From the NCBI RefSeq assembly GCF_013315695.1, contig NZ_CP054353.1: a stretch of 64,000 nucleotides of DNA; one strand, 5' to 3'. This DNA comes from Escherichia coli (GTDB taxonomy: Bacteria > Pseudomonadota > Gammaproteobacteria > Enterobacterales > Enterobacteriaceae). Under the pieces are notes generated by a model. That model saw only the letters and a list, made by a program, of their open reading frames with translations, was not told the origin of the DNA and did not search any database. Shown piece after piece: positions 2,099 to 32,428 of this stretch; the stretch's first letter is position 1; each line of letters begins with the position of its first letter. The position numbers were made by a program, and so were the translations under genes.

Positions 2099-3238
2099 AT
2101 GAGCGCGGGAAGCCCAAAATTCACCGTTCGCCGCATTGCGGCTTTGTCACTGGTTTCGCTATGGCTGGCAGGCTGTTCTGACACTTCAAATCCACCGGCC
2201 CCGGTCAGCTCCGTTAATGGCAATGCGCCTGCAAATACCAATTCTGGTATGTTGATTACGCCGCCGCCGAAAATGGGGACGACGTCTACAGCGCAGCAAC
2301 CGCAAATTCAGCCGGTACAGCAGCCACAAATTCAGGCCACTCAACAACCGCAAATCCAGCCGGTGCAGCCAGTAGCTCAGCAGCCGGTACAGATGGAAAA
2401 CGGACGCATCGTCTATAACCGTCAGTATGGGAACATTCCGAAAGGCAGTTATAGCGGCAGTACCTATACAGTGAAAAAAGGCGACACACTTTTCTATATC
2501 GCCTGGATTACTGGCAACGATTTCCGTGACCTTGCTCAGCGCAACAATATTCAGGCACCATACGCGCTGAACGTCGGTCAGACCTTACAGGTGGGGAATG
2601 CTTCCGGTACGCCAATCACTGGCGGAAATGCCATTACCCAGGCCGACGCAGCAGAGCAAGGAGTTGTGATCAAGCCTGCACAAAATTCCACCGTTGCTGT
2701 TGCTTCGCAACCGACAATTACGTATTCTGAGTCTTCGGGTGAACAGAGTGCTAACAAAATGTTGCCGAACAACAAGCCAACTGCGACCACGGTCACAGCG
2801 CCTGTAACGGTACCAACAGCAAGCACAACCGAGCCGACTGTCAGCAGTACATCAACCAGTACGCCTATCTCCACCTGGCGCTGGCCGACTGAGGGCAAAG
2901 TGATCGAAACCTTTGGCGCTTCTGAGGGGGGCAACAAGGGGATTGATATCGCAGGCAGCAAAGGACAGGCAATTATCGCGACTGCAGATGGCCGCGTTGT
3001 TTATGCCGGTAACGCGCTGCGCGGCTACGGTAATCTGATTATCATCAAACATAATGATGATTACCTGAGTGCCTACGCCCATAACGACACAATGCTGGTC
3101 CGGGAACAACAAGAAGTGAAGGCGGGGCAAAAAATAGCAACCATGGGTAGCACCGGAACCAGTTCAACACGCTTGCATTTTGAAATTCGTTACAAGGGGA
3201 AATCCGTAAACCCGCTGCGTTATTTGCCGCAGCGATAA
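2099..3238 (+). CDS. nlpD: lipoprotein NlpD (LysM and M23 peptidase domains)
   Basis: 379 aa; lipobox LAGCS; Pro/Gln-rich repeats; C-terminal M23 domain; lies upstream of rpoS. Confidence 0.9.
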
Positions 3239-3300
3239 ATCGGCGGAACCAGGCTTTTGCTTGAATGTTCCGTCAAGGGATCACGGGTAGGAGCCACCTT

Positions 3301-4293
3301 ATGAGTCAGAATACGCTGAAAGTTCATGATTTAAATGAAGATGCGGAATTTGATGAGAACGGAGTTGAGGTTTTTGACGAAAAGGCCTTAGTAGAAGAGG
3401 AACCCAGTGATAACGATTTGGCCGAAGAGGAACTGTTATCGCAGGGAGCCACACAGCGTGTGCTGGACGCGACTCAGCTTTACCTTGGTGAGATTGGTTA
3501 TTCACCACTGTTAACGGCCGAAGAAGAAGTTTATTTTGCGCGTCGCGCACTGCGTGGAGATGTTGCCTCTCGCCGCCGGATGATCGAGAGTAACTTGCGT
3601 CTGGTGGTAAAAATTGCCCGCCGTTATGGCAATCGTGGTCTGGCGTTGCTGGATCTTATCGAAGAGGGCAACCTGGGGCTGATCCGCGCGGTAGAGAAGT
3701 TTGACCCGGAACGTGGTTTCCGCTTCTCAACATACGCAACCTGGTGGATTCGCCAGACGATCGAACGGGCGATTATGAACCAAACCCGTACTATTCGTTT
3801 GCCGATTCACATCGTAAAGGAGCTGAACGTTTACCTGCGAACCGCACGCGAGTTGTCCCATAAACTGGACCATGAACCAAGTGCGGAAGAGATCGCAGAG
3901 CAACTGGATAAGCCAGTTGATGACGTCAGCCGTATGCTTCGTCTTAACGAGCGCATTACCTCGGTAGACACCCCGCTGGGTGGTGATTCCGAAAAAGCGT
4001 TGCTGGACATCCTGGCCGATGAAAAAGAGAACGGTCCGGAAGATACCACGCAAGATGACGATATGAAGCAGAGCATCGTCAAATGGCTGTTCGAGCTGAA
4101 CGCCAAACAGCGTGAAGTGCTGGCACGTCGATTCGGTTTGCTGGGGTACGAAGCGGCAACACTGGAAGATGTAGGTCGTGAAATTGGCCTCACCCGTGAA
4201 CGTGTTCGCCAGATTCAGGTTGAAGGCCTGCGCCGTTTGCGCGAAATCCTGCAAACGCAGGGGCTGAATATCGAAGCGCTGTTCCGCGAGTAA
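3301..4293 (+). CDS. rpoS: RNA polymerase sigma factor RpoS (sigma-38), intact
   Basis: 330 aa starting [17 protein letters not shown]; start taken at ATG 3301 rather than the upstream track start; codon 33 is GAG (Glu). Confidence 0.95.
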
Positions 4294-4310
4294 GTAAGCA
4301 TCTGTCATAA

Positions 4311-4344
4311 AGGCCAGTCTCTTATGAGGCTGGCCTTTTTCTTT
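4311..4344. terminator. Stem-loop plus T-run downstream of rpoS (likely bidirectional terminator)
   Basis: aggccagtctc..gaggctggcct stem followed by ttttt; lies between convergent rpoS and the MarR-type gene. Confidence 0.6.
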
Positions 4345-4413
4345 TGTATGGGGAGTTGGTGTGTTTCGTCGCCTGGATAAGACACGTCAGCGTCCCATCC
4401 GGCAATCAACATC

Positions 4414-4821
4414 CTATTTGCTCATCATCTTGCGCACCAGCTGCATAAACAGCTCCTGCTCTTCTCCACTCAAACGCCCCAAAAATTCCTCATCCACACT
4501 GTCGCCAATCGGTATCGCCGCAGCAAGTACCTTTTCTCCTTCGGCAGTCAGCCAGACAAAGCGTCGCCGCTTATCAGCGGCGTCATGTTCACGTCTGACT
4601 AAGCCACGATTTTCCATTCTTGCCAACATTTCTGCCAGCGTTGCTTTGGTGCTGACTGCTGCTTCTATCAGTGCCACCTGTTCGATACCAGGCTTATCAG
4701 CAATGGCGCGCATCACCGCGTACTGTGGTTTGGTCAGGTCAGGTAACTCGTGCTGCCAGCGGGCCGTATGCTGCTGAAAAAGCTGTCGTAACTGATGGAA
4801 CGCTTTATTTCGTAACGCCAT
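4414..4821 (-). CDS. MarR/SlyA-family transcriptional regulator
   Basis: 135 aa; winged-helix MarR-like sequence; divergent from the decarboxylase operon. Confidence 0.8.
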   Translation of the reverse strand: MALRNKAFHQLRQLFQQHTARWQHELPDLTKPQYAVMRAIADKPGIEQVALIEAAVSTKATLAEMLARMENRGLVRREHDAADKRRRFVWLTAEGEKVLAAAIPIGDSVDEEFLGRLSGEEQELFMQLVRKMMSK

Positions 4822-4936
4822 GTAAACTCCGGGCTAATTCTCTGTCGCTATCATAGCGGTTTTTCAGTGACGAAGAAGATGTTGTTACTTTTCAATCCTT
4901 GCCGCTGTGGAAATGAAGGAGTATGTTAATAATAAC

Positions 4937-4950
4937 GTTCGTATACGAAC
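4937..4950. promoter_or_regulatory. Perfect 14-bp palindrome gttcgtatacgaac, candidate operator
   Basis: Exact inverted repeat 18 bp upstream of the UbiX-like ATG, in the divergent intergenic region with the MarR gene. Confidence 0.4.
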
Positions 4951-4967
4951 AATTAAGAGAGTAAGCA

Positions 4968-5561
4968 ATGAAACTGATCGTCGGGATGACAGGGGCTACC
5001 GGTGCGCCTCTTGGTGTGGCATTACTGCAAGCGCTGCGGGAGATGCCGAATGTCGAGACTCATCTGGTGATGTCGACGTGGGCGAAAACCACCATTGAAC
5101 TGGAAACGCCTTACAGCGCTCGCGATGTTGCTGCCCTCGCAGACTTCAGCCATAACTCGGCGGATCAGGCGGCGACCATCTCCTCAGGTTCCTTTCGTAC
5201 CGACGGCATGATCGTTATTCCGTGCAGTATGAAAACGCTCGCCGGTATCCGTGCCGGTTACGCCGATGGCCTGGTAGGGCGCGCGGCGGACGTCGTGCTC
5301 AAAGAAGGCCGCAAACTGGTGCTGGTGCCGCGTGAAATGCCGCTTAGCACCATCCATCTCGAAAATATGCTCGCACTTTCGCGCATGGGCGTGGCGATGG
5401 TGCCGCCGATGCCTGCCTTTTATAACCATCCCGAAACGGTAGATGACATTGTCCAGCACGTGGTAGCCCGCGTGCTGGATCAATTTGGCCTCGAACATCC
5501 TCACGCCAGGCGCTGGCAAGGATTGTCGCAGACCCGGAATTTTTCTCAGGAGAATGAATAA
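4968..5561 (+). CDS. ecdB: UbiX/Pad1-family flavin prenyltransferase (decarboxylase subunit B)
   Basis: 197 aa; MKLIVGMTGATGAP flavoprotein motif typical of UbiX/Pad1; first gene of a three-gene operon; gene symbol recalled from O157-type annotations and not verified. Confidence 0.8.
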   Translation: MKLIVGMTGATGAPLGVALLQALREMPNVETHLVMSTWAKTTIELETPYSARDVAALADFSHNSADQAATISSGSFRTDGMIVIPCSMKTLAGIRAGYADGLVGRAADVVLKEGRKLVLVPREMPLSTIHLENMLALSRMGVAMVPPMPAFYNHPETVDDIVQHVVARVLDQFGLEHPHARRWQGLSQTRNFSQENE

Positions 5562-6988
5562 TGGCATTTGATGATTTACGCAGCTTTTTACAGGCGCTCG
5601 ACGACCATGGGCAATTGCTGAAAATCAGCGAAGAGGTGAACGCAGAACCGGATCTGGCAGCCGCAGCCAACGCCACCGGGCGTATCGGCGACGGCGCGCC
5701 AGCGCTGTGGTTTGATAATATTCGCGGCTTTACCGATGCCCGCGTGGCGATGAACACCATCGGTTCCTGGCAGAACCACGCGATTTCCCTCGGCCTGCCG
5801 CCAAATACCCCGGTTAAAAAACAGATCGATGAGTTTATCCGCCGCTGGGACAACTTCCCGATTGCCCCGGAACGCCGAGCCAATCCAGCCTGGGCGCAGA
5901 ACACCGTCGATGGAGACGAGATCAACCTGTTCGATATCCTGCCGCTGTTTCGTTTAAACGATGGCGATGGCGGTTTCTATCTCGACAAAGCGTGCGTGGT
6001 TTCCCGCGATCCGCTTGATCCGGATAACTTCGGCAAGCAGAACGTCGGTATCTACCGCATGGAAGTGAAGGGCAAACGTAAGCTCGGCCTGCAACCGGTG
6101 CCGATGCACGATATCGCCCTGCATCTGCATAAAGCGGAAGAGCGCGGTGAAGATCTGCCGATTGCGATCACCCTCGGTAACGATCCGATCATCACGCTGA
6201 TGGGGGCCACGCCGCTGAAATATGATCAGTCCGAGTACGAAATGGCAGGCGCGCTGCGTGAAAGCCCGTACCCGATCGCCACCGCCCCGCTGACTGGTTT
6301 TGATGTGCCGTGGGGTTCAGAAGTGATCCTCGAAGGGGTTATCGAAAGTCGTAAACGTGAGATCGAAGGGCCGTTCGGTGAGTTTACCGGCCACTACTCC
6401 GGTGGGCGCAACATGACCGTGGTGCGCATCGATAAAGTCTCTTACCGCACGAAACCGATTTTCGAATCGCTGTACCTCGGCATGCCGTGGACGGAAATCG
6501 ACTATCTGATGGGGCCAGCCACCTGCGTGCCGCTGTATCAGCAACTGAAAGCCGAGTTCCCGGAAGTGCAGGCGGTGAACGCCATGTACACCCACGGCCT
6601 GCTGGCGATTATCTCCACCAAAAAACGCTACGGTGGCTTTGCCCGCGCGGTGGGCCTGCGTGCGATGACCACGCCGCACGGTCTGGGCTATGTGAAGATG
6701 GTGATTATGGTCGATGAAGACGTTGATCCGTTCAACCTGCCGCAGGTGATGTGGGCGCTCTCCTCGAAAGTGAACCCGGCAGGGGATTTGGTGCAGTTGC
6801 CGAATATGTCCGTGCTGGAACTCGACCCAGGCTCAAGCCCGGCGGGGATCACCGACAAGCTGATTATCGACGCCACCACGCCTGTCGCCCCGGACAACCG
6901 TGGTCACTACAGTCAGCCGGTGGTGGATTTACCGGAAACCAAAGCCTGGGCTGAAAAACTGACCGCTATGCTGGCCGCACGTCAATAA
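5561..6988 (+). CDS. ecdC: UbiD-family (prenyl-FMN dependent) aromatic acid decarboxylase subunit C
   Basis: 475 aa; UbiD-like length and sequence; start overlaps the upstream stop (translational coupling). Confidence 0.8.
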   Translation: MAFDDLRSFLQALDDHGQLLKISEEVNAEPDLAAAANATGRIGDGAPALWFDNIRGFTDARVAMNTIGSWQNHAISLGLPPNTPVKKQIDEFIRRWDNFPIAPERRANPAWAQNTVDGDEINLFDILPLFRLNDGDGGFYLDKACVVSRDPLDPDNFGKQNVGIYRMEVKGKRKLGLQPVPMHDIALHLHKAEERGEDLPIAITLGNDPIITLMGATPLKYDQSEYEMAGALRESPYPIATAPLTGFDVPWGSEVILEGVIESRKREIEGPFGEFTGHYSGGRNMTVVRIDKVSYRTKPIFESLYLGMPWTEIDYLMGPATCVPLYQQLKAEFPEVQAVNAMYTHGLLAIISTKKRYGGFARAVGLRAMTTPHGLGYVKMVIMVDEDVDPFNLPQVMWALSSKVNPAGDLVQLPNMSVLELDPGSSPAGITDKLIIDATTPVAPDNRGHYSQPVVDLPETKAWAEKLTAMLAARQ

Positions 6989-6998
6989 GGAGAACAAG

Positions 6999-7235
6999 AT
7001 GATTTGTCCACGTTGTGCTGATGAACAGATTGAAGTGATGGCGAAATCGCCGGTAAAAGATGTCTGGACGGTCTACCAGTGCCAGCATTGCCTCTATACC
7101 TGGCGCGATACCGAACCGCTGCGCCGCACCAGCCGCGAACATTATCCCGAAGCGTTCCGCATGACGCAGAAAGATATTGATGACGCGCCGATGGTGCCGA
7201 GCATCCCGCCGCTGCTGGCGGAAGGTAAGCGCTAA
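6999..7235 (+). CDS. ecdD: small decarboxylase subunit D (zinc-ribbon protein)
   Basis: 78 aa; CPRC...CQHC pair of CxxC motifs; RBS aggagaacaag upstream; third gene of the operon. Confidence 0.7.
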   Translation: MICPRCADEQIEVMAKSPVKDVWTVYQCQHCLYTWRDTEPLRRTSREHYPEAFRMTQKDIDDAPMVPSIPPLLAEGKR

Positions 7236-7236
7236 A

Positions 7237-7268
7237 TAAAAGGTCCGATGCCCATCGGACCTTTTTAT
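7237..7268. terminator. Bidirectional intrinsic terminator between the decarboxylase operon and ygbN
   Basis: aaataaaa-ggtccgatgcccatcggacc-ttttt: GC stem flanked by an A-run and a T-run between convergent genes. Confidence 0.7.
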
Positions 7269-7273
7269 TAAGG

Positions 7274-8638
7274 TCAAATTACCGCCCATACGCACCAGGT
7301 AATTAAGAATCCGGTAAAACCGAGAATGGTCGTTAACACTGTCCAGGTTTTCAGACCGTCTGCTACCGACAACCCCAGATATTTGGTCACAATCCAGAAC
7401 CCTGAGTCATTAATATGTGACGCGCCAAGCCCACCAAAGCAGGCTGCCAGCGTCACCAATACGCACTGAATCGGATTCAATCCCATCACCGCTTCTGAGA
7501 GTAACCCGCCGGTTGTCAGGATTGCTACGGTTGCTGACCCCTGCGATGCACGCAGCGCCAGTGAAATAATAAATGCGGCTGGTAACAGAGGCAGGTCAAT
7601 CATTTGTAGCATGTTGGCAAGGGCTTTGCCGACGCCCGATTCCACCAGCACTTTGCCAAATACCCCTCCAGCACCAGTAACCAAAATCACTACCGCCGCG
7701 GTGGGAAGGGCTGAGCCCATAATGTCGCTGGTGTGTTGTAAGCTCCAGCCGCGACGTAAAGCCAATAACCAGAATGCCAGCACCAGCGCAATCATTAGAG
7801 CTACCATTGGTGAGCCGATCAGCTGTAGCGTACCAAGCAGGGGATGCGAAGGCGGCATCAGTGTTGCGGAAACCGTACCCGCCATGATAATCGCGATAGG
7901 AATAACAATTAGCGAGGTGACCAGCGCGACGCCCGGTGGATTTATTTTATCGCTTAATTTTGTCGCGCCTTCCTCACTGGCCGGAGCCAGTTGCATCTGT
8001 TCCAGTACTTCCACCGACATCGCATATTGGCGCTTATTGATTATTTTCGCTGCAAAGTAGCCAACAATCCCTACGGGAATAGAAATCGCAATACCGATGA
8101 TGGTTAGCCAGCCGATGTCTGCGTGGAGTAACCCCGCTGCGGCGACAGGGCCTGGATGCGGCGGTACCGCCACATGAACAGTTAGCATGATTCCAGCGAC
8201 AGGCAGGCCAAATTTGAGTGGCGATATTTTGGCAACCTTGGCAAAACCGTAAATGATTGGCGCAAGAATAATAAAGCCGACATCAAAGAAGACGGGGATA
8301 CCGAGGAAGAACGCTGCCAGAGTCAGCGCAGCGATAGTTCGTTTGTCACCTAACTTGCGACTGAAATAATTAGCCAGTGACTCTGCACCACCAGAGTGTT
8401 CGATCATACGCCCCAGCATAGCGCCCAGACCAATAATAATAGTGACGGAACCAAGCACACCGCCCATCCCGGCGATCATCACTTTACCCACTTCGCCCGC
8501 CGGTATACCCGCCGCAAGTGCGACTAACAGGCTGACGAGGAGCAGAGCAACGAATGGTTGTACCTTTGCCTTGATGACCAGCAGCAACAGCATGATTACG
8601 CCAGTTAACGCAATGCATAACAATGTAATTGTGGACAT
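7274..8638 (-). CDS. ygbN: GntP-family acid-sugar permease
   Basis: 454 aa polytopic membrane protein; GntP-like; conserved position next to ygbM. Confidence 0.85.
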   Translation of the reverse strand: MSTITLLCIALTGVIMLLLLVIKAKVQPFVALLLVSLLVALAAGIPAGEVGKVMIAGMGGVLGSVTIIIGLGAMLGRMIEHSGGAESLANYFSRKLGDKRTIAALTLAAFFLGIPVFFDVGFIILAPIIYGFAKVAKISPLKFGLPVAGIMLTVHVAVPPHPGPVAAAGLLHADIGWLTIIGIAISIPVGIVGYFAAKIINKRQYAMSVEVLEQMQLAPASEEGATKLSDKINPPGVALVTSLIVIPIAIIMAGTVSATLMPPSHPLLGTLQLIGSPMVALMIALVLAFWLLALRRGWSLQHTSDIMGSALPTAAVVILVTGAGGVFGKVLVESGVGKALANMLQMIDLPLLPAAFIISLALRASQGSATVAILTTGGLLSEAVMGLNPIQCVLVTLAACFGGLGASHINDSGFWIVTKYLGLSVADGLKTWTVLTTILGFTGFLITWCVWAVI

Positions 8639-8726
8639 GGGAAACCCTGTCTGAAAGTTATAGTTAACCTACCCCATCCGTAGATGGGGGGATGTATGGG
8701 TACGTTGTAATTAGGGATTTAACGAA

Positions 8727-9503
8727 TTAGCGCCAGGCGTCAAACCAGCCAAGCCCTTCTTCGGTGAGGCCACGAGGTTTATATTCACAACCGATCCAGC
8801 CCTGATATCCCACCTCATCGAACAGGCGGAACAGCCACGGATAGTTGATTTCTCCATCGTCCGGTTCATGTCGATCAGGTAGTCCGGCAATTTGTACGTG
8901 CGCATATTTCCCGGCGTAGTCGCGGATTAAATGCGTCAGGTTGCCATCTACTTTTTGCGCATGAAAAGTATCTAGTTGAATAAACACGTTATCTCGCGCA
9001 ACTTCTTCAACAATAGCCAGTGCCTGATACTGGCTGGAGAAGAGATAATGAGGCTTAACGCCGGGGCTGAGTGCTTCAACTAATATTCGCTTGCCGTGTG
9101 GCGCAAAGCGGTCGGCAGCGTAGCGGAGATTATCGATAAATACTGCCCTGTACCGTTCAGCATCTTCGCCAGCGGGCACGACGCCTGCCATCACATGGAC
9201 TTGTTCACAATTGAGCGCCAATGCATATTCCAGTGCCAGGTCGATGTCTGCGTGTGCTTCGTGCTCACGTCCGGGAAGGGCGGATAATCCCCATTCCCCC
9301 GCATTAATATCTCCGGGAGCGGTATTGAACAGCGCCAGTGTCAGATGGTTTTGCTCCAGTTGCTTTTGGATTTGCAGGGTGGAGTAGTTATAGGGAAACA
9401 GAAATTCCACAGCATCGAACCCGGCTTTTCGCGCTGCGGCGAAGCGTTCAATAAAAGGCACTTCGGTGAACATCATGGATAAATTAGCTGCAAAACGAGG
9501 CAT
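8727..9503 (-). CDS. ygbM: 2-oxo-tetronate isomerase (hydroxypyruvate isomerase-like TIM barrel)
   Basis: 258 aa starting [21 protein letters not shown]; xylose-isomerase-like fold family. Confidence 0.85.
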
Positions 9504-9507
9504 TGCA

Positions 9508-10146
9508 TTAACTCCTTAATTCCGCAATTTCACCTGCGGTCAGATAACGGATCGGGCGGTCACCGAGAATAAAAATCAGCTTTGCCGTTTCCTCCAGCTC
9601 TTCCATATTGTTGGCGGCTTCTTGCAGGCTTTCACCGCAAACCACTGGGCCATGATTTGCCAGTAAAAAAGCCTGATTGTCTGCTGCCAGTTCCGCCAGA
9701 TCCTGTGCGATGCGTTTATCGCCCGGTCGGTAATAAGGCACCAGCGGGATATTTCCCATCCGCATCACCACGTATGGTGTGAACGGACGAATAACGTTGC
9801 TGCTGTCCAGCCCTTGCAGGCAGGAAAGCGCCGTCGACCATGTGCTGTGCAAATGCACCACCGCTTTACAGCGCGGATTGTTGCGATACAGCGCCAGATG
9901 AAAGAGCACCTCTTTCGAGGGTTTGTCACCACTTAACCATTCGCCATCCGCGGCGACTTTGGAAAGCCGCTGCGGATCGAGATTGCCCAGGCATGAACCT
10001 GTCGGTGTCGCCAGTAAATTCCCGTCAGGTAAAAGCAGCGACAGATTGCCAGCCGAACCGGTTGCATAGCCGCGCTGAAAGAATGAACTGGCAATCCGCG
10101 TCATCTCCTCTCGCAAAGACTGCTCTACTTTTGCGAAATCGCTCAT
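9508..10146 (-). CDS. ygbL: class II aldolase/adducin-family 3-oxo-tetronate 4-phosphate decarboxylase
   Basis: 212 aa; class II aldolase-like; 4-bp overlap with ygbK. Confidence 0.85.
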
Positions 10147-11405
10147 GATAAAAACTCTCTTTGGGCTCGTGAAAAAAAGGCTTCATCACCGAAGTTGCCA
10201 GATTTAAGGGCGAGTGAGACAGGCTTATCCAGTGCGTTTACCCACGGCACGCCAGGGGAAATGGTTGGGCCAATATGAAACCCTTTTATTCCCAGGCTCT
10301 GTGTGACTACGCCGGAGGTCTCACCGCCTGCGACAATAAAGCGTGTCACGCCTTCCGCTGCTAACCGCGCCGCTAGTTGAGAAAACAGTGTTTCTACTGC
10401 CTGACTGGCTTTTTGTGCACCGTATTGCTGTTGAATTGCTGCCAATGCGTCAGTGCTTGCGGTGGCAAAAACCAGTGGAGCAAGTACACTTTCCTGGCCC
10501 AGAACCCACTCTGCCAGTTCGTGTGCATAAGCGGCCAGAGTTTCAATTGAGAGGCAGCGTGCCACATCAACTTCACGGGCTGGTGCAATTTGACGGTAAT
10601 GTGCTACCTGGCGGTTGGTCATTTGAGAGCATGAACCGGAGAGCACTACGCCGCGCCCAGCGAGCGGATGCCCTGCTTTGCGAGCCTGGTTACCGTTTTC
10701 TTGCGCCCACTGCCGGGCAAGGCCAATCGCCAGACCAGAACCGCCCGTTACCAGTGGGGCATCGCGCAAGGCTTCTCCCTGAATTTCCAGATGGTATTCG
10801 GTCAGCGCATCAAGCACCGCGTAGCGGTAGCCCTCTTGCTGTAAGCGAGCCAGCTCTTGACGAACGGCATCCACACCTTGTTCGAAAACATGTGCCGAAA
10901 CGACGCCGCAGCGCCCTGTGGATTGCGCTTCAACCAGACGGGGAAGATAGCTGTCGGTCATGGGATTTACCGGGTGATGGCGCATCCCGGATTCGGCCAG
11001 CAGTTGATTCATTACGAACAAATACCCCTGATAAACCGTACGTCCGTTGACCGGCAGGGCCGGAGAGAAGACCGTAAACGGCGTGTCGAGAGCATCCATT
11101 AATGCATCGGTAACCGGGCCGATATTACCTTTCGCCGTACTGTCGAAAGTAGAGCAGTATTTGAAATAGATCTGTTTGCAACCTTGCTGTTGCAACCAGC
11201 TCAGAGCCGCCAGCGATTGCTGTGTGGCTTCAACCACCGGACAGGAACGCGTTTTCAGGCTGATCACCAGTGCGTCGATTGCTTCCGGCATTTTACCTGT
11301 TGGAACACCGTTAATTTGTACCGTTGGTAGACCGTTTTCCACCAGAAAACTGGCGATATCCGTCGCGCCGGTAAAATCATCGGCGATAACGCCAATCTTG
11401 ATCAT
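10143..11405 (-). CDS. ygbK: four-carbon acid sugar (3-oxo-tetronate) kinase, DUF1537 family
   Basis: 420 aa starting MIKIGVIADDFTGATD; overlaps ygbJ stop. Confidence 0.85.
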   Translation of the reverse strand: MIKIGVIADDFTGATDIASFLVENGLPTVQINGVPTGKMPEAIDALVISLKTRSCPVVEATQQSLAALSWLQQQGCKQIYFKYCSTFDSTAKGNIGPVTDALMDALDTPFTVFSPALPVNGRTVYQGYLFVMNQLLAESGMRHHPVNPMTDSYLPRLVEAQSTGRCGVVSAHVFEQGVDAVRQELARLQQEGYRYAVLDALTEYHLEIQGEALRDAPLVTGGSGLAIGLARQWAQENGNQARKAGHPLAGRGVVLSGSCSQMTNRQVAHYRQIAPAREVDVARCLSIETLAAYAHELAEWVLGQESVLAPLVFATASTDALAAIQQQYGAQKASQAVETLFSQLAARLAAEGVTRFIVAGGETSGVVTQSLGIKGFHIGPTISPGVPWVNALDKPVSLALKSGNFGDEAFFSRAQREFLS

Positions 11406-17316: not shown

Positions 17317-17745
17317 TTACGCTTTGGTGGCAATCAGGATGGCTGATGCTTTGATCAATGCAATAACGCGCGAGCCAGTGGTGAGTTTCATTTCATCCTG
17401 ACTTTCATTTGTTACCACTGCCACAATTTCAAAACCCGCATCCGTTTTGATATGGACAGTGGCGTTCACTGCGCCTTCGGTGATTGTCGACACGCTGCCA
17501 GCAAACTGGTTGCGAGCAGAGAATTTCAGTCCACAGTCTTCCGTTGCCAGTGTTACCCACGGGGCTTTAATCAGGGCAATCGCTTCTTTCCCTTTTGCCA
17601 GACCAAGAGCCTGCTGGCTGCTGTGTGTAACAATTGCCACCAGCTTTGCACCACCTGCCAGCGTCAGTTCTACTTCATCATTCACAGCGCCCATTGCTAC
17701 TGCGCTAACTGTTCCGGTTAATTGATTTCTTGCTGAAACTGCCAT
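17317..17745 (-). CDS. di-Mop (tandem TOBE) molybdate/molybdenum-pterin-binding protein
   Basis: 142 aa from the ATG at 17745, which has a perfect aaaggagg RBS 4 nt upstream; two ~70-aa halves each starting SARNQ(L/F)xG(T/S)VS; begins 44 bp after the fhlA stop. Confidence 0.75.
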   Translation of the reverse strand: MAVSARNQLTGTVSAVAMGAVNDEVELTLAGGAKLVAIVTHSSQQALGLAKGKEAIALIKAPWVTLATEDCGLKFSARNQFAGSVSTITEGAVNATVHIKTDAGFEIVAVVTNESQDEMKLTTGSRVIALIKASAILIATKA

Positions 17746-17789
17746 ACTGCCTCCTTTCATTGAATGTTGATCGAGTATAACCACATCTG

Positions 17790-31674: not shown

Positions 31675-32428
31675 GTGCGCTTTTTATTGAGCTTAGTGCT
31701 GCCTGCACAGGCCACCAGCTTTACCGAATATCTGCCAATGAGTGACAGCGAATACGCGCAAAAGCGGGCGCTGAAACCTCTCTTAAACATGCCTTATGAT
31801 GCCGAGCAAACCTGGCATTTTAGAAAAGTGGGCGTTGCTGGCGTGACGCTTGAAAAGATGCCAAATGATGATAGTGAATGGCAATTGAACGGTAAAGATC
31901 GCGCCGGTAAATCCTGGTCTGTGCCTGTGGGGGGGGCTGCAAAATATGGCGGGTAATGCGCAACTTTACCGTGCCGATCTTGATCGTAACGGCATTCAGG
32001 ATCTGGTTATCTGGCGGGGTATTTCAGGAAATGGTCTGGCACCTAACGCGTTTTTGATTCTGATGACCTTTAATCAGCAAGGTCGCCCGTGTGTTTTTCA
32101 GTCCGATGGTTTTTATAGCGCAAGTGAAACTGGCATTGATGATTTGCTGGATTTACAAAGGAATGGTCACACGCAATTGCTGGATATGCAGTTTGATTCC
32201 GGTTACTGGATAACCAGTCTGTATCAGGTAAAAGACGCCAAATGGCAGCGTGTTCACGGCTGGTTTGGCAAGTTAAGCTATCCCGCGCTCACGCGTTTTA
32301 CTTATACCCCCAACCGTAAACTCGTCCTCAAACCCATCGCCGGGCGCGACCCGCAAACGGAAGATCTGGCACTGACGCAGAGTTGCTTGATAAAGGGGGA
32401 TGTTCTTGATGGGGTGAACCAGCTCTGA
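31675..32428 (+). pseudogene. Secreted-protein gene with DLxRNG repeats, split by a +1 frameshift in a G8 tract (or phase-variable)
   Basis: ORFs 31675..31956 and 31946..32428 overlap in adjacent frames; both frames are open across 31889..31956, which contains the G8 run 31929..31936; deleting one G fuses them into one ~248-aa ORF with a signal-peptide-like N-terminus. Confidence 0.5.

Follow-up and report, generated by a model that had tools for sequence, protein, structure and literature searches.

A probable HosA-regulated hydroxyarylic acid decarboxylase operon in the mutS-rpoS polymorphic region of Escherichia coli

The strain-variable segment between rpoS and ygbN in the window (the whole 64-kb stretch of Escherichia coli DNA analyzed here) is very probably a HosA-regulated operon for the non-oxidative decarboxylation of hydroxyarylic acids that has resided since ancient times in the rpoS-mutS interval of enterobacteria. 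Four intact open reading frames fill the space from the rpoS terminator to the ygbN terminator, encoding a MarR-type regulator, a UbiX-like protein, a UbiD-like protein and a 78-aa zinc-ribbon protein. From sequence we established which genes are present and that they are intact, their catalytic and zinc-binding motifs, the operator, both junctions and how widely the cassette occurs. Earlier publications already cover the operon, with its regulator and operator, the inducer, the enzyme family, protein structures and the occurrence among strains, and standard annotation names the genes; the names in use are hosA with vdcBCD, ecdBCD, kpdBCD or "had".

Layout and type of the region

The original prediction placed a MarR-type gene on the minus strand and UbiX-like, UbiD-like and 78-aa genes on the plus strand, and all four are indeed intact in those places (Table 1). 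The three plus-strand genes are adjacent and co-oriented in the order B-C-D, with a 1-nt overlap between vdcB and vdcC and a 10-nt gap between vdcC and vdcD. The stem-loop terminators proposed for both sides are real by their folds: the rpoS hairpin, with a folding energy of -23.1 kcal/mol (z -7.0), also occurs in K-12, B2 and O157:H7 strains, while the right-hand terminator folds on either strand (-17.6 and -17.1 kcal/mol, z ~-5) and is identical in sequence in K-12. The cassette sits exactly between these two elements, so the predicted segment, 4294-7272, does contain it, but the strain-specific part lies slightly inside those limits. RpoS encoded in the window is identical to that of O157:H7. 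The stem-loop next to hosA, which we take to resemble the E. coli REP consensus, has a related sequence at the equivalent place in the B2 cassette. An Rfam scan of 3000-9000 found no RNA family; a ctRNA match on the rpoS terminator hairpin was sub-threshold (23 bits versus a gathering score of 50) and was rejected.

Table 1. Features of the interval between rpoS and ygbN, in window coordinates.
Feature	Position	Strand	Size	Description and basis
rpoS	3301-4293	+		Left flanking core gene; so annotated in a record 100% identical over 4200-7400
rpoS intrinsic terminator hairpin	4309-4338	+		Left edge of variable slot; terminator scan and fold
Strain-variable cassette	4341-7235		~2.9 kb	Junction alignment
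REP-like stem-loop	4369-4405	-		Directly 3' of hosA; fold -26.8 kcal/mol, z -5.3
hosA	4414-4821	-	135 aa	Pfam MarR; near-identity to PDB 8AGA
Putative vdcB promoter	4899-4927	+		TTGCCG 4899-4904, 17-nt spacer, TATGTT 4922-4927; inspection and conservation
HosA operator GTTCGTATACGAAC	4937-4950		14 bp	Perfect palindrome, 18 nt upstream of vdcB start codon
vdcB (ecdB/kpdB/pad1)	4968-5561	+	197 aa	UbiX-type flavin prenyltransferase; NCBIfam VdcB, PDB 1SBZ
vdcC (ecdC/kpdC/yclC)	5561-6988	+	475 aa	UbiD-family catalytic subunit; NCBIfam VdcC, PDB 7AE4
vdcD (ecdD/kpdD)	6999-7235	+	78 aa	Zinc-ribbon activator subunit; NCBIfam VdcD, ShdD of 7AE4
Bidirectional terminator	7236-7268	both		A-tract/hairpin/T-tract common to vdcD (+) and ygbN (-); right edge of slot
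ygbN (o454)	7274-8638	-		Right flanking gene

The mutS-rpoS region has reportedly been treated by Herbelin 2000, LeClerc 1999, Culham and Wood 2000 and Kotewicz 2003. We typed it by in silico PCR with published primers, comparing the products with the values for enteropathogenic E. coli (EPEC) E2348/69. The arrangement in the window is the published pattern IV (E2348/69 type), which has o454 (ygbN), with kpdD-kpdC-kpdB-slyA separating it from rpoS (Ewers et al. 2014). The o454-nlpD amplicon is 4,547 bp in silico versus 4,546 bp published and the fhlA-nlpD amplicon 15,194 versus 15,192 bp; other pairs compare as 1,394 with 1,394 and 7,366 with 7,365 bp. The slyA-nlpD, mutS-yclC, mutS-o388, f265-o388, c3292-mutS and fhlA-nlpD products all fall within 2 bp of E2348/69. 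The o347 primer site is absent from the window. Gene content is the same as in E2348/69, and nothing substantial differs apart from the o454-yclC amplicon (734 bp in the window versus 716 bp in the table of Ewers et al.). Gene content and amplicon sizes agree with the original placement in the rpoS-mutS polymorphic region.

Regulator, enzymes and proposed function

The minus-strand product carries a MarR Pfam domain (5.8e-12), so the family first assigned to it holds, but it is not an anonymous member: of the 134 residues that align with PDB 8AGA, the E2348/69 "Transcriptional regulator HosA" (E 2e-83), only 2 differ. By sequence it is HosA, a MarR/SlyA-family repressor predicted to sense 4-hydroxybenzoate. 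The 4-hydroxybenzoate contact residues given for HosA in a preprint (F8, H9, R12, F15, H18, K31 and D110) are all present in the window protein. HosA has been crystallized, its operator has been mapped and it has been shown to leave DNA upon addition of 4-hydroxybenzoate; a published summary describes it as repressing the decarboxylase operon, with 4-hydroxybenzoate as inducer. HosA in EPEC has also been tied to flagellar motility, so its regulon may exceed the decarboxylase operon.

The operator GTTCGTATACGAAC, which is identical to the HosA site in the literature and forms part of the oligonucleotide published as the HosA binding site, stands between the putative promoter and vdcB, the first decarboxylase gene. 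This is its sole exact copy within the 64-kb window, where no further HosA sites were found beyond chance-level matches with 3 mismatches. The palindrome is kept in four genera (E. coli, Salmonella, Klebsiella and Pantoea) amid an otherwise poorly conserved spacer, and the CTTGCC and TAT.TT blocks of the putative vdcB promoter are conserved in the same four. Since a promoter-consensus scan of 4100-7500 called no sigma-70-like site, the promoter position in Table 1 is one that we infer from inspection and conservation.

Family membership of the enzymes was judged by the curated cut-offs of the NCBIfam models, and all three proteins score above them (VdcB, 311.5 versus 290; VdcC, 790.8 versus 650; VdcD, 121.2 versus 30), bearing out the B-C-D architecture originally proposed for the plus strand. 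The Pfam assignments of the cassette proteins are likewise far above chance, with Flavoprotein at 1.3e-44 in the UbiX-like protein and UbiD_N, UbiD and UbiD_C at 4e-14, 5e-55 and 4e-32 in the UbiD-like protein. VdcB is ~97% identical across all 197 residues to PDB 1SBZ (O157:H7 Pad1), VdcC matches PDB 7AE4 chain A (E 2e-160) and VdcD matches ShdD of 7AE4. The two CxxC knuckles of VdcD (C3, C6, C28 and C31) correspond to the zinc ligands of ShVdcD. The UbiD catalytic motif, defined in the literature as R-Xn-E-X4-(E/D), is complete in VdcC as R166, E269 and E274 (within NVGIYR and EGPFGE), lines up with ShVdcC and E. coli UbiD and is invariant in five orthologues. A UbiD-like protein lacking its prFMN- and metal-binding residues would have spoken against the original prediction, but none is lost: beyond the catalytic network, VdcC keeps the NxGxYR, H183 and SEY motifs, and N161, H183 and E225 fall within motifs shared with ShVdcC and UbiD. 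These three residues are presumably metal/phosphate ligands for prFMN, by correspondence to N168, H191 and E233 of Fdc1.

In the proposed mechanism, a HosA dimer on GTTCGTATACGAAC, just downstream of the vdcB promoter, would block transcription until 4-hydroxybenzoate, binding at the dimer interface, took HosA off the DNA. VdcB, as a UbiX-type enzyme, would prenylate reduced FMN to prFMN; VdcC, as a UbiD-type enzyme and probably hexameric, as in the solved ShVdcCD complex, would bind prFMN, and the zinc-ribbon VdcD would hold its catalytic-loop region. CO2 would then be reversibly removed, converting 4-hydroxybenzoate to phenol and vanillate to guaiacol, with activity expected to be best without oxygen. 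We rely on the literature for the effect of 4-hydroxybenzoate on HosA binding, for the substrates, for what VdcD does and for the sensitivity to oxygen; that the genes are expressed and active in this strain is presumed because their orthologues are nearly identical. A reaction on 4-hydroxybenzoate or vanillate that needs C, D and prFMN has been reported for the O157:H7 orthologue, ShVdcCD and BsdCD. The original statement that the natural substrate is not settled still applies to the ecological role, but a review table gives 4-hydroxybenzoate (best) and vanillate for the O157:H7 enzyme (EcdCD).

Because vdcB and vdcC belong to the same protein families as ubiX and ubiD, and VdcC aligns end to end with E. 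coli UbiD (E 7e-47), the two genes could be read as spare copies from the ubiquinone pathway, acting on polyprenyl-hydroxybenzoate instead of free phenolic acids. This is highly improbable. The NCBIfam scores speak against a housekeeping identity, VdcC reaching only 174 against the cut-off of 788 of the UbiD equivalog model versus 791 against 650 for the VdcC model; the cassette comes with its own D subunit and with a repressor that senses 4-hydroxybenzoate; the reported substrates are free 4-hydroxybenzoate and vanillate; and K-12 makes ubiquinone without the cassette. Alternatively, the enzyme may in vivo chiefly catalyze the reverse reaction or use a different phenolic acid, for example in phenol carboxylation under high gut CO2 or in protocatechuate or gallate decarboxylation, 4-hydroxybenzoate being a laboratory substrate only. 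The decarboxylase family is reversible, the Klebsiella enzyme takes additional hydroxybenzoates and the adaptive value of a toxic phenol output is unclear; even so, we consider this quite unlikely given that the cognate sensor HosA answers 4-hydroxybenzoate with a reported KD of ~4.7 µM, that 4-hydroxybenzoate is the best of the listed substrates and that gut bacteria with this enzyme type are predicted to produce phenol from it.

The cassette marks strains able to form phenol, from which the uremic toxin phenyl sulfate arises, when 4-hydroxybenzoate is supplied by the diet or by parabens. HosA also serves as a biosensor part, and the rpoS-adjacent region is used to type E. coli lineages.

Distribution and origin of the cassette

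As originally predicted, K-12 has no copy of the cassette: 93 bp separate the ygbN and rpoS coding regions in MG1655, which lacks the four genes, and the two bounding hairpins are ~11 bp apart in JM83. B2 strains carry a different cassette (flavodoxin and MBL-hydrolase) in the slot. Among complete E. coli genomes, hosA-vdcBCD is chromosomal in 2,380 of 5,426 (~44%), commensal and environmental isolates included, and nearly always occurs as a single copy at the rpoS-ygbN site; none of these genomes carries it on a plasmid. Apparent plasmid matches in E. coli, Salmonella Senftenberg and K. pneumoniae were rejected as evidently chromosomal records filed as plasmids (the Senftenberg record is 728 kb and carries rpoS, nlpD and ispDF; the K. 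pneumoniae record is 5.37 Mb). True megaplasmid copies of related cassettes occur in Pantoea.

The absence of the cassette from K-12 and B2 strains could reflect a recent genomic island inserted beside rpoS in pathogenic lineages instead of an old resident lost by K-12. Related cassettes lie on megaplasmids of Pantoea and Rahnella, a preprint argues that hosA was horizontally acquired, and the cassette alleles are several-fold more diverged than their flanks (91-98% identity between lineages versus 98-100% for adjoining core genes). GC and GC3 are also somewhat above those of rpoS and ygbN (vdcC GC3, 0.70 versus 0.54), but composition does not discriminate origin, since mutS, also in the window, has comparable values (GC 0.56 and GC3 0.62, versus 0.56-0.58 and 0.63-0.70 for the cassette), and so does the Salmonella copy. 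Against an island stand the lack of any integrase or transposase, IS element, att-like direct repeat or tRNA in 4294-7272 or at either junction, the absence of the cassette from E. coli plasmids and its nearly constant occurrence as a single copy at this site, its carriage by 44% of the genomes, commensal and environmental isolates included, and its core-gene-like divergence in Salmonella and Klebsiella (vdcC 86-87% nucleotide identity versus 86-93% for rpoS). On this evidence a recent island seems rather doubtful. That Salmonella and Klebsiella also have the cassette between rpoS and mutS favors loss in K-12 over recent gain elsewhere, which we infer to be the direction of change; in Salmonella, however, its orientation with respect to rpoS is inverted, so vertical descent by itself does not account for the full history.

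The slot has three states (empty, hosA-vdcBCD, or flavodoxin and MBL-hydrolase), and the two occupied ones have in common a few initial bases past the rpoS terminator and a REP-like hairpin. We tentatively raise the possibility, in itself rather unlikely, that the space between the rpoS and ygbN terminators is a long-lived site of cassette exchange and not a simple presence/absence indel. Were this so, the high divergence of the hosA-vdcBCD alleles would fit old variants that selection for the handling of phenolic acids has maintained in particular niches, and that homologous recombination, using the conserved hairpins as anchors, has carried from lineage to lineage.

Comparison with known systems

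Among the closest known systems is EcdBCD/Pad1 of O157:H7 with its "slyA-like" HosA, which has the same four genes in the same order and likewise joins the rpoS terminator on the left; amino acid identity to the window is 95.6% for HosA, 97.0% for B, 99.6% for C and 100% for D. The original description of the segment as O157:H7-type content is therefore right as to the genes but not as to their configuration: the loss of ygbI-N from O157:H7 has left vdcD directly next to pphB-mutS there, whereas the window keeps ygbN-ygbI. Nucleotide identity to O157:H7 is ~95% inside the cassette versus 98-100% per 250-bp bin in the flank. For vdcC, amino acid identity exceeds nucleotide identity in comparisons with both O157:H7 (99.6% versus 95.2%) and Salmonella (98% versus 87%), suggesting purifying selection.

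Klebsiella KpdBCD and Salmonella StdBCD belong to orthologous four-gene cassettes in the rpoS-mutS interval that keep the operator palindrome, and their VdcC proteins are 97-98% identical to that of the window. They differ in arrangement: the Salmonella cassette has the inverted orientation described above, and in Klebsiella three additional genes separate rpoS from the regulator, while a second site resembling the operator lies upstream. More distantly, ShdCD of Sedimentibacter hydroxybenzoicus and BsdBCD of Bacillus subtilis, the structurally and kinetically characterized VdcCD members with 4-hydroxybenzoate and vanillate as substrates, share the UbiD-type C subunit with its ERE motif, the four-cysteine zinc-ribbon D subunit and the UbiX partner. 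The D subunit is 78 aa in the window versus 68 aa in the Sedimentibacter/Bacillus type, with an insertion before the proline-rich tail, and the VdcCD papers describe no HosA-type regulator for those organisms.

Gene order, regulator and operator

Four intact genes lie between rpoS and ygbN in the order originally predicted (see table), and all three plus-strand proteins exceed the curated cut-offs of the NCBIfam VdcB, VdcC and VdcD models, upholding the BCD decarboxylase architecture (vdcBCD is also known as ecdBCD or kpdBCD). The vdcC start shares one base with the vdcB stop codon, and ten bases separate vdcC from vdcD. Stem-loops do fold on both sides of the module; since the one beyond vdcD is equally stable on both strands, it can terminate vdcD and ygbN alike.

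Features of the cassette, its flanks and other loci in the window
Feature	Position	Strand	Details
rpoS	ends 4293	+	left flanking gene
rpoS terminator hairpin	4309-4338		folds at -23.1 kcal/mol, z -7.0
REP-like hairpin, 3' of hosA	4369-4405	-	-26.8 kcal/mol
hosA (MarR-type ORF)	4414-4821	-	135 aa, intact; six-frame ORF list; Pfam MarR domain
Second palindrome, CGCTATCATAGCG	4846-4858		25-37 nt upstream of hosA start codon
Inferred vdcB promoter	TTGCCG 4899-4904; TATGTT 4922-4927		reading of the two conserved spacer blocks
HosA operator, GTTCGTATACGAAC	4937-4950		18 nt 5' of vdcB start codon
vdcB (UbiX-like ORF)	4968-5561	+	197 aa, intact; Pfam Flavoprotein (UbiX) domain
vdcC (UbiD-like ORF)	5561-6988	+	475 aa, intact; three Pfam UbiD domains
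vdcD	6999-7235	+	78 aa, intact; six-frame ORF list
A-tract/hairpin/T-tract	7236-7268		both strands fold equally well
ygbN	ends 7274	-	right flanking gene
otnK/ygbK	10143-11405	-	420 aa, overlapping otnC
TOBE-domain gene (c3292)	17317-17745	-	molybdenum-pterin-binding-like; between ygbA and fhlA; ORF listed as 17317-17784
Counterpart of MSB1_4I hypothetical protein	31676-32428	+	only a 160-aa ORF (31946-32428) open in that frame

The regulator, predicted simply as MarR-type, does belong to that family but need not stay anonymous: its alignment with PDB 8AGA ("Transcriptional regulator HosA") shows just two differences in 134 residues, and by sequence it is HosA. The residues that a structural preprint lists as 4-hydroxybenzoate contacts (F8, H9, R12, F15, H18, K31 and D110) are all kept. 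The HosA operator is a perfect 14-bp palindrome with no other exact copy within the 64-kb window. The binding-site oligonucleotide of a published biosensor study contains this palindrome plus flanks, and in that study 4-hydroxybenzoate freed HosA from the DNA (KD about 4.7 µM).

When the hosA-vdcB spacers of the window, O157:H7, Salmonella, Klebsiella and a Pantoea megaplasmid were aligned, the palindrome was almost invariant and the rest of the spacer poorly conserved, save for two blocks, CTTGCC and TAT.TT, that are also almost invariant and lie 17 nt apart. Because a promoter-consensus scan gave no call there, we infer the vdcB promoter from these blocks. With a promoter at 4899-4927, the operator would fall just downstream of the transcription start, in agreement with the original HosA biochemistry, which, in the summary given by a preprint, describes a site downstream of the start and a steric block.

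A T-run on the plus strand comes after the second palindrome, which the scan therefore flagged as terminator-like; conserved in part in Salmonella and Klebsiella, this palindrome could be part of the hosA 5' leader or the site of another regulator. The Klebsiella and Pantoea spacers carry an extra operator-like half or full site (…GTATACGAAC… / …GTACACGAAC…; alignment columns about 120-140) upstream of the conserved operator, and those of E. coli and Salmonella apparently hold one site only.

Decarboxylase subunits and putative function

VdcB shares about 97% identity along its whole length with 1SBZ, the crystal structure of "Pad1" from E. coli O157:H7, and VdcC matches the solved Sedimentibacter hydroxybenzoicus VdcC (7AE4) at 2e-160. 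Alignment to E. coli UbiD places the R-Xn-E-X4-(E/D) network at R166, E269 and E274, and the NVGIYR, H183 and SEY motifs, which we take from the Fdc1 structure to supply the Mn2+ and phosphate ligands, are likewise conserved, so the UbiD-like protein has the catalytic residues expected of it. VdcD aligns with ShdD, the D subunit of the Sedimentibacter enzyme, and its cysteines at positions 3, 6, 28 and 31 are exactly the four zinc ligands of ShVdcD. None of these protein features varies among the orthologues of O157:H7, Salmonella, Klebsiella and Pantoea.

From work on orthologues, in part as summarised in a preprint, HosA would repress both hosA itself and the decarboxylase operon, with 4-hydroxybenzoate lifting the repression. 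By analogy, VdcB, as the UbiX-type partner, would make prFMN, a cofactor described in the literature as inactivated by oxygen, and VdcD would bind hexameric VdcC tightly, steadying the loops with the Glu-Arg-Glu triad, as published for a complex in which VdcD is required for activity for this reason. For gut bacteria, two routes to phenol have been predicted, of which this enzyme type is one.

The natural substrate is less open than originally stated, since inducer and substrates are already published: an entry in a review table gives 4-hydroxybenzoate (best substrate) and vanillate for the O157:H7 enzyme, EcdCD. Because the window proteins are 99.6% (VdcC) and 100% (VdcD) identical to those of O157:H7, transfer of this function to them appears safe. 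For vdcC, identity to O157:H7 is 95.2% in nucleotides versus 99.6% in amino acids, and to Salmonella 87% versus 98%; this contrast shows strong purifying selection, so the genes are being maintained and do not decay.

Origin of the cassette and other occupants of the slot

By junction alignment, some 2.9 kb of DNA, from about 4341 to about 7235, is strain-specific. K-12 lacks the genes, as originally stated: in strain JM83 the two bounding hairpins are ~11 bp apart (…GGCCTTTTCTGTGCACAATAAAAGGTCC…), and in MG1655 the gap between the coding regions of ygbN and rpoS is 93 bp. The variable segment shows no integrase, IS element or tRNA and is not flanked by direct repeats. B2 strains hold an alternative cassette in the slot, with flavodoxin and MBL-hydrolase genes. 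Its first few bases beyond the rpoS terminator are those of the window cassette, and it has a related REP-like sequence at the equivalent position (about 2236-2275 in the B2-strain record, L004); these elements hint at a recombination anchor common to the two.

Of the 5,426 complete genomes in the current RefSeq set, 2,380 carry ≥80% of the cassette; in complete E. coli genomes it lies on the chromosome in every case and almost always as a single copy. The four genes also occupy the rpoS-mutS interval in Salmonella Senftenberg (L005, 5996-9875), where they lie between ygbI and rpoS, inverted relative to rpoS with vdcD converging on it, and in Klebsiella pneumoniae (L006, 2366-8840), where they are oriented as in the window and three extra genes (DUF4440, MFS, LysR) separate rpoS from the regulator. 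Although filed under a plasmid label, the two records are evidently chromosomal, since they carry rpoS, nlpD, surE, ispDF and mutS. Nucleotide identity of vdcC to these two genera is 86-87%, and that of rpoS is 93% (Salmonella) and 86% (Klebsiella); the cassette thus appears about as diverged as rpoS itself. Nor does composition single it out once mutS serves as yardstick. Together with the clean junctions, this residence in other genera, rpoS-like divergence and composition favor an old resident, which K-12-like lineages probably lost and B2 strains replaced, over a recent island. These comparisons lend no support to the proposal, made in a preprint, that hosA came recently from Shigella.

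The window allele is rare, matched at ≥99% identity in only 8 of 5,426 genomes; the next nearest alleles, those of IAI39 and CE10, stand at 97.9%, and most at 95-97%. Against O157:H7 (L003), identity per 250-bp bin is 98-100% in the surE to rpoS flank and falls abruptly to 91-98% inside the cassette, from the rpoS terminator on (window 4200-7240 compared). This pattern fits the known mosaic, recombination-prone nature of the region and is the only thread here with potential for novelty.

The closely related genome MSB1_4I is not identical to the window beyond 4200-7400 (first mismatch at 7756, in ygbN). It annotates a 250-aa hypothetical protein between hycI and ascB, and translating the corresponding window span shifted by one base gives 12 stops; a frameshift or stop probably distinguishes the two. 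In MG1655, ygbK (L009, 336-1502) is annotated at 388 aa, with 92 bp between it and ygbL; the K-12 protein may thus be truncated at its C-terminus or end at a different stop codon.

Configuration of the mutS-rpoS region

In E. coli the mutS-rpoS region is a classic site of polymorphism, and a survey published in 2014, covering 510 strains, distinguished four o454-nlpD patterns there. Its pattern IV, with EPEC E2348/69 as type strain, has kpdD, kpdC, kpdB and slyA (now hosA) between o454 (ygbN) and rpoS. In-silico PCR on the window with the survey's primers gave amplicons within 2 bp of the published sizes for o454-nlpD (4,547 versus 4,546 bp published), slyA-nlpD (1,394 bp in both), mutS-yclC (7,366 versus 7,365 bp), mutS-o388 (2,881 bp in both), f265-o388 (1,146 bp in both), c3292-mutS (1,121 versus 1,119-1,120 bp) and fhlA-nlpD (15,194 versus 15,192 bp). 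The sole mismatch was o454-yclC (6893-7626), at 734 bp versus 716 bp in E2348/69, and the B2-specific o347 primer found no site in the window. These sizes and the absent o347 site identify the region as pattern IV. The TOBE-domain gene, c3292, adds a second known polymorphism to this region: the typing paper records it in CFT073 and E2348/69 and lists it as missing from MG1655 and EDL933.

The finding as a whole is already known, and routine annotation names the genes correctly. The original interpretation is supported, with the updates that the regulator is HosA and that inducer and substrates are published. Its description of the segment as O157:H7-type content of the rpoS-mutS polymorphic region stands for region and cassette but not for configuration: O157:H7 (pattern I) has the same cassette with ygbI-N deleted, so that vdcD abuts pphB-mutS, whereas the window is of the E2348/69 type.
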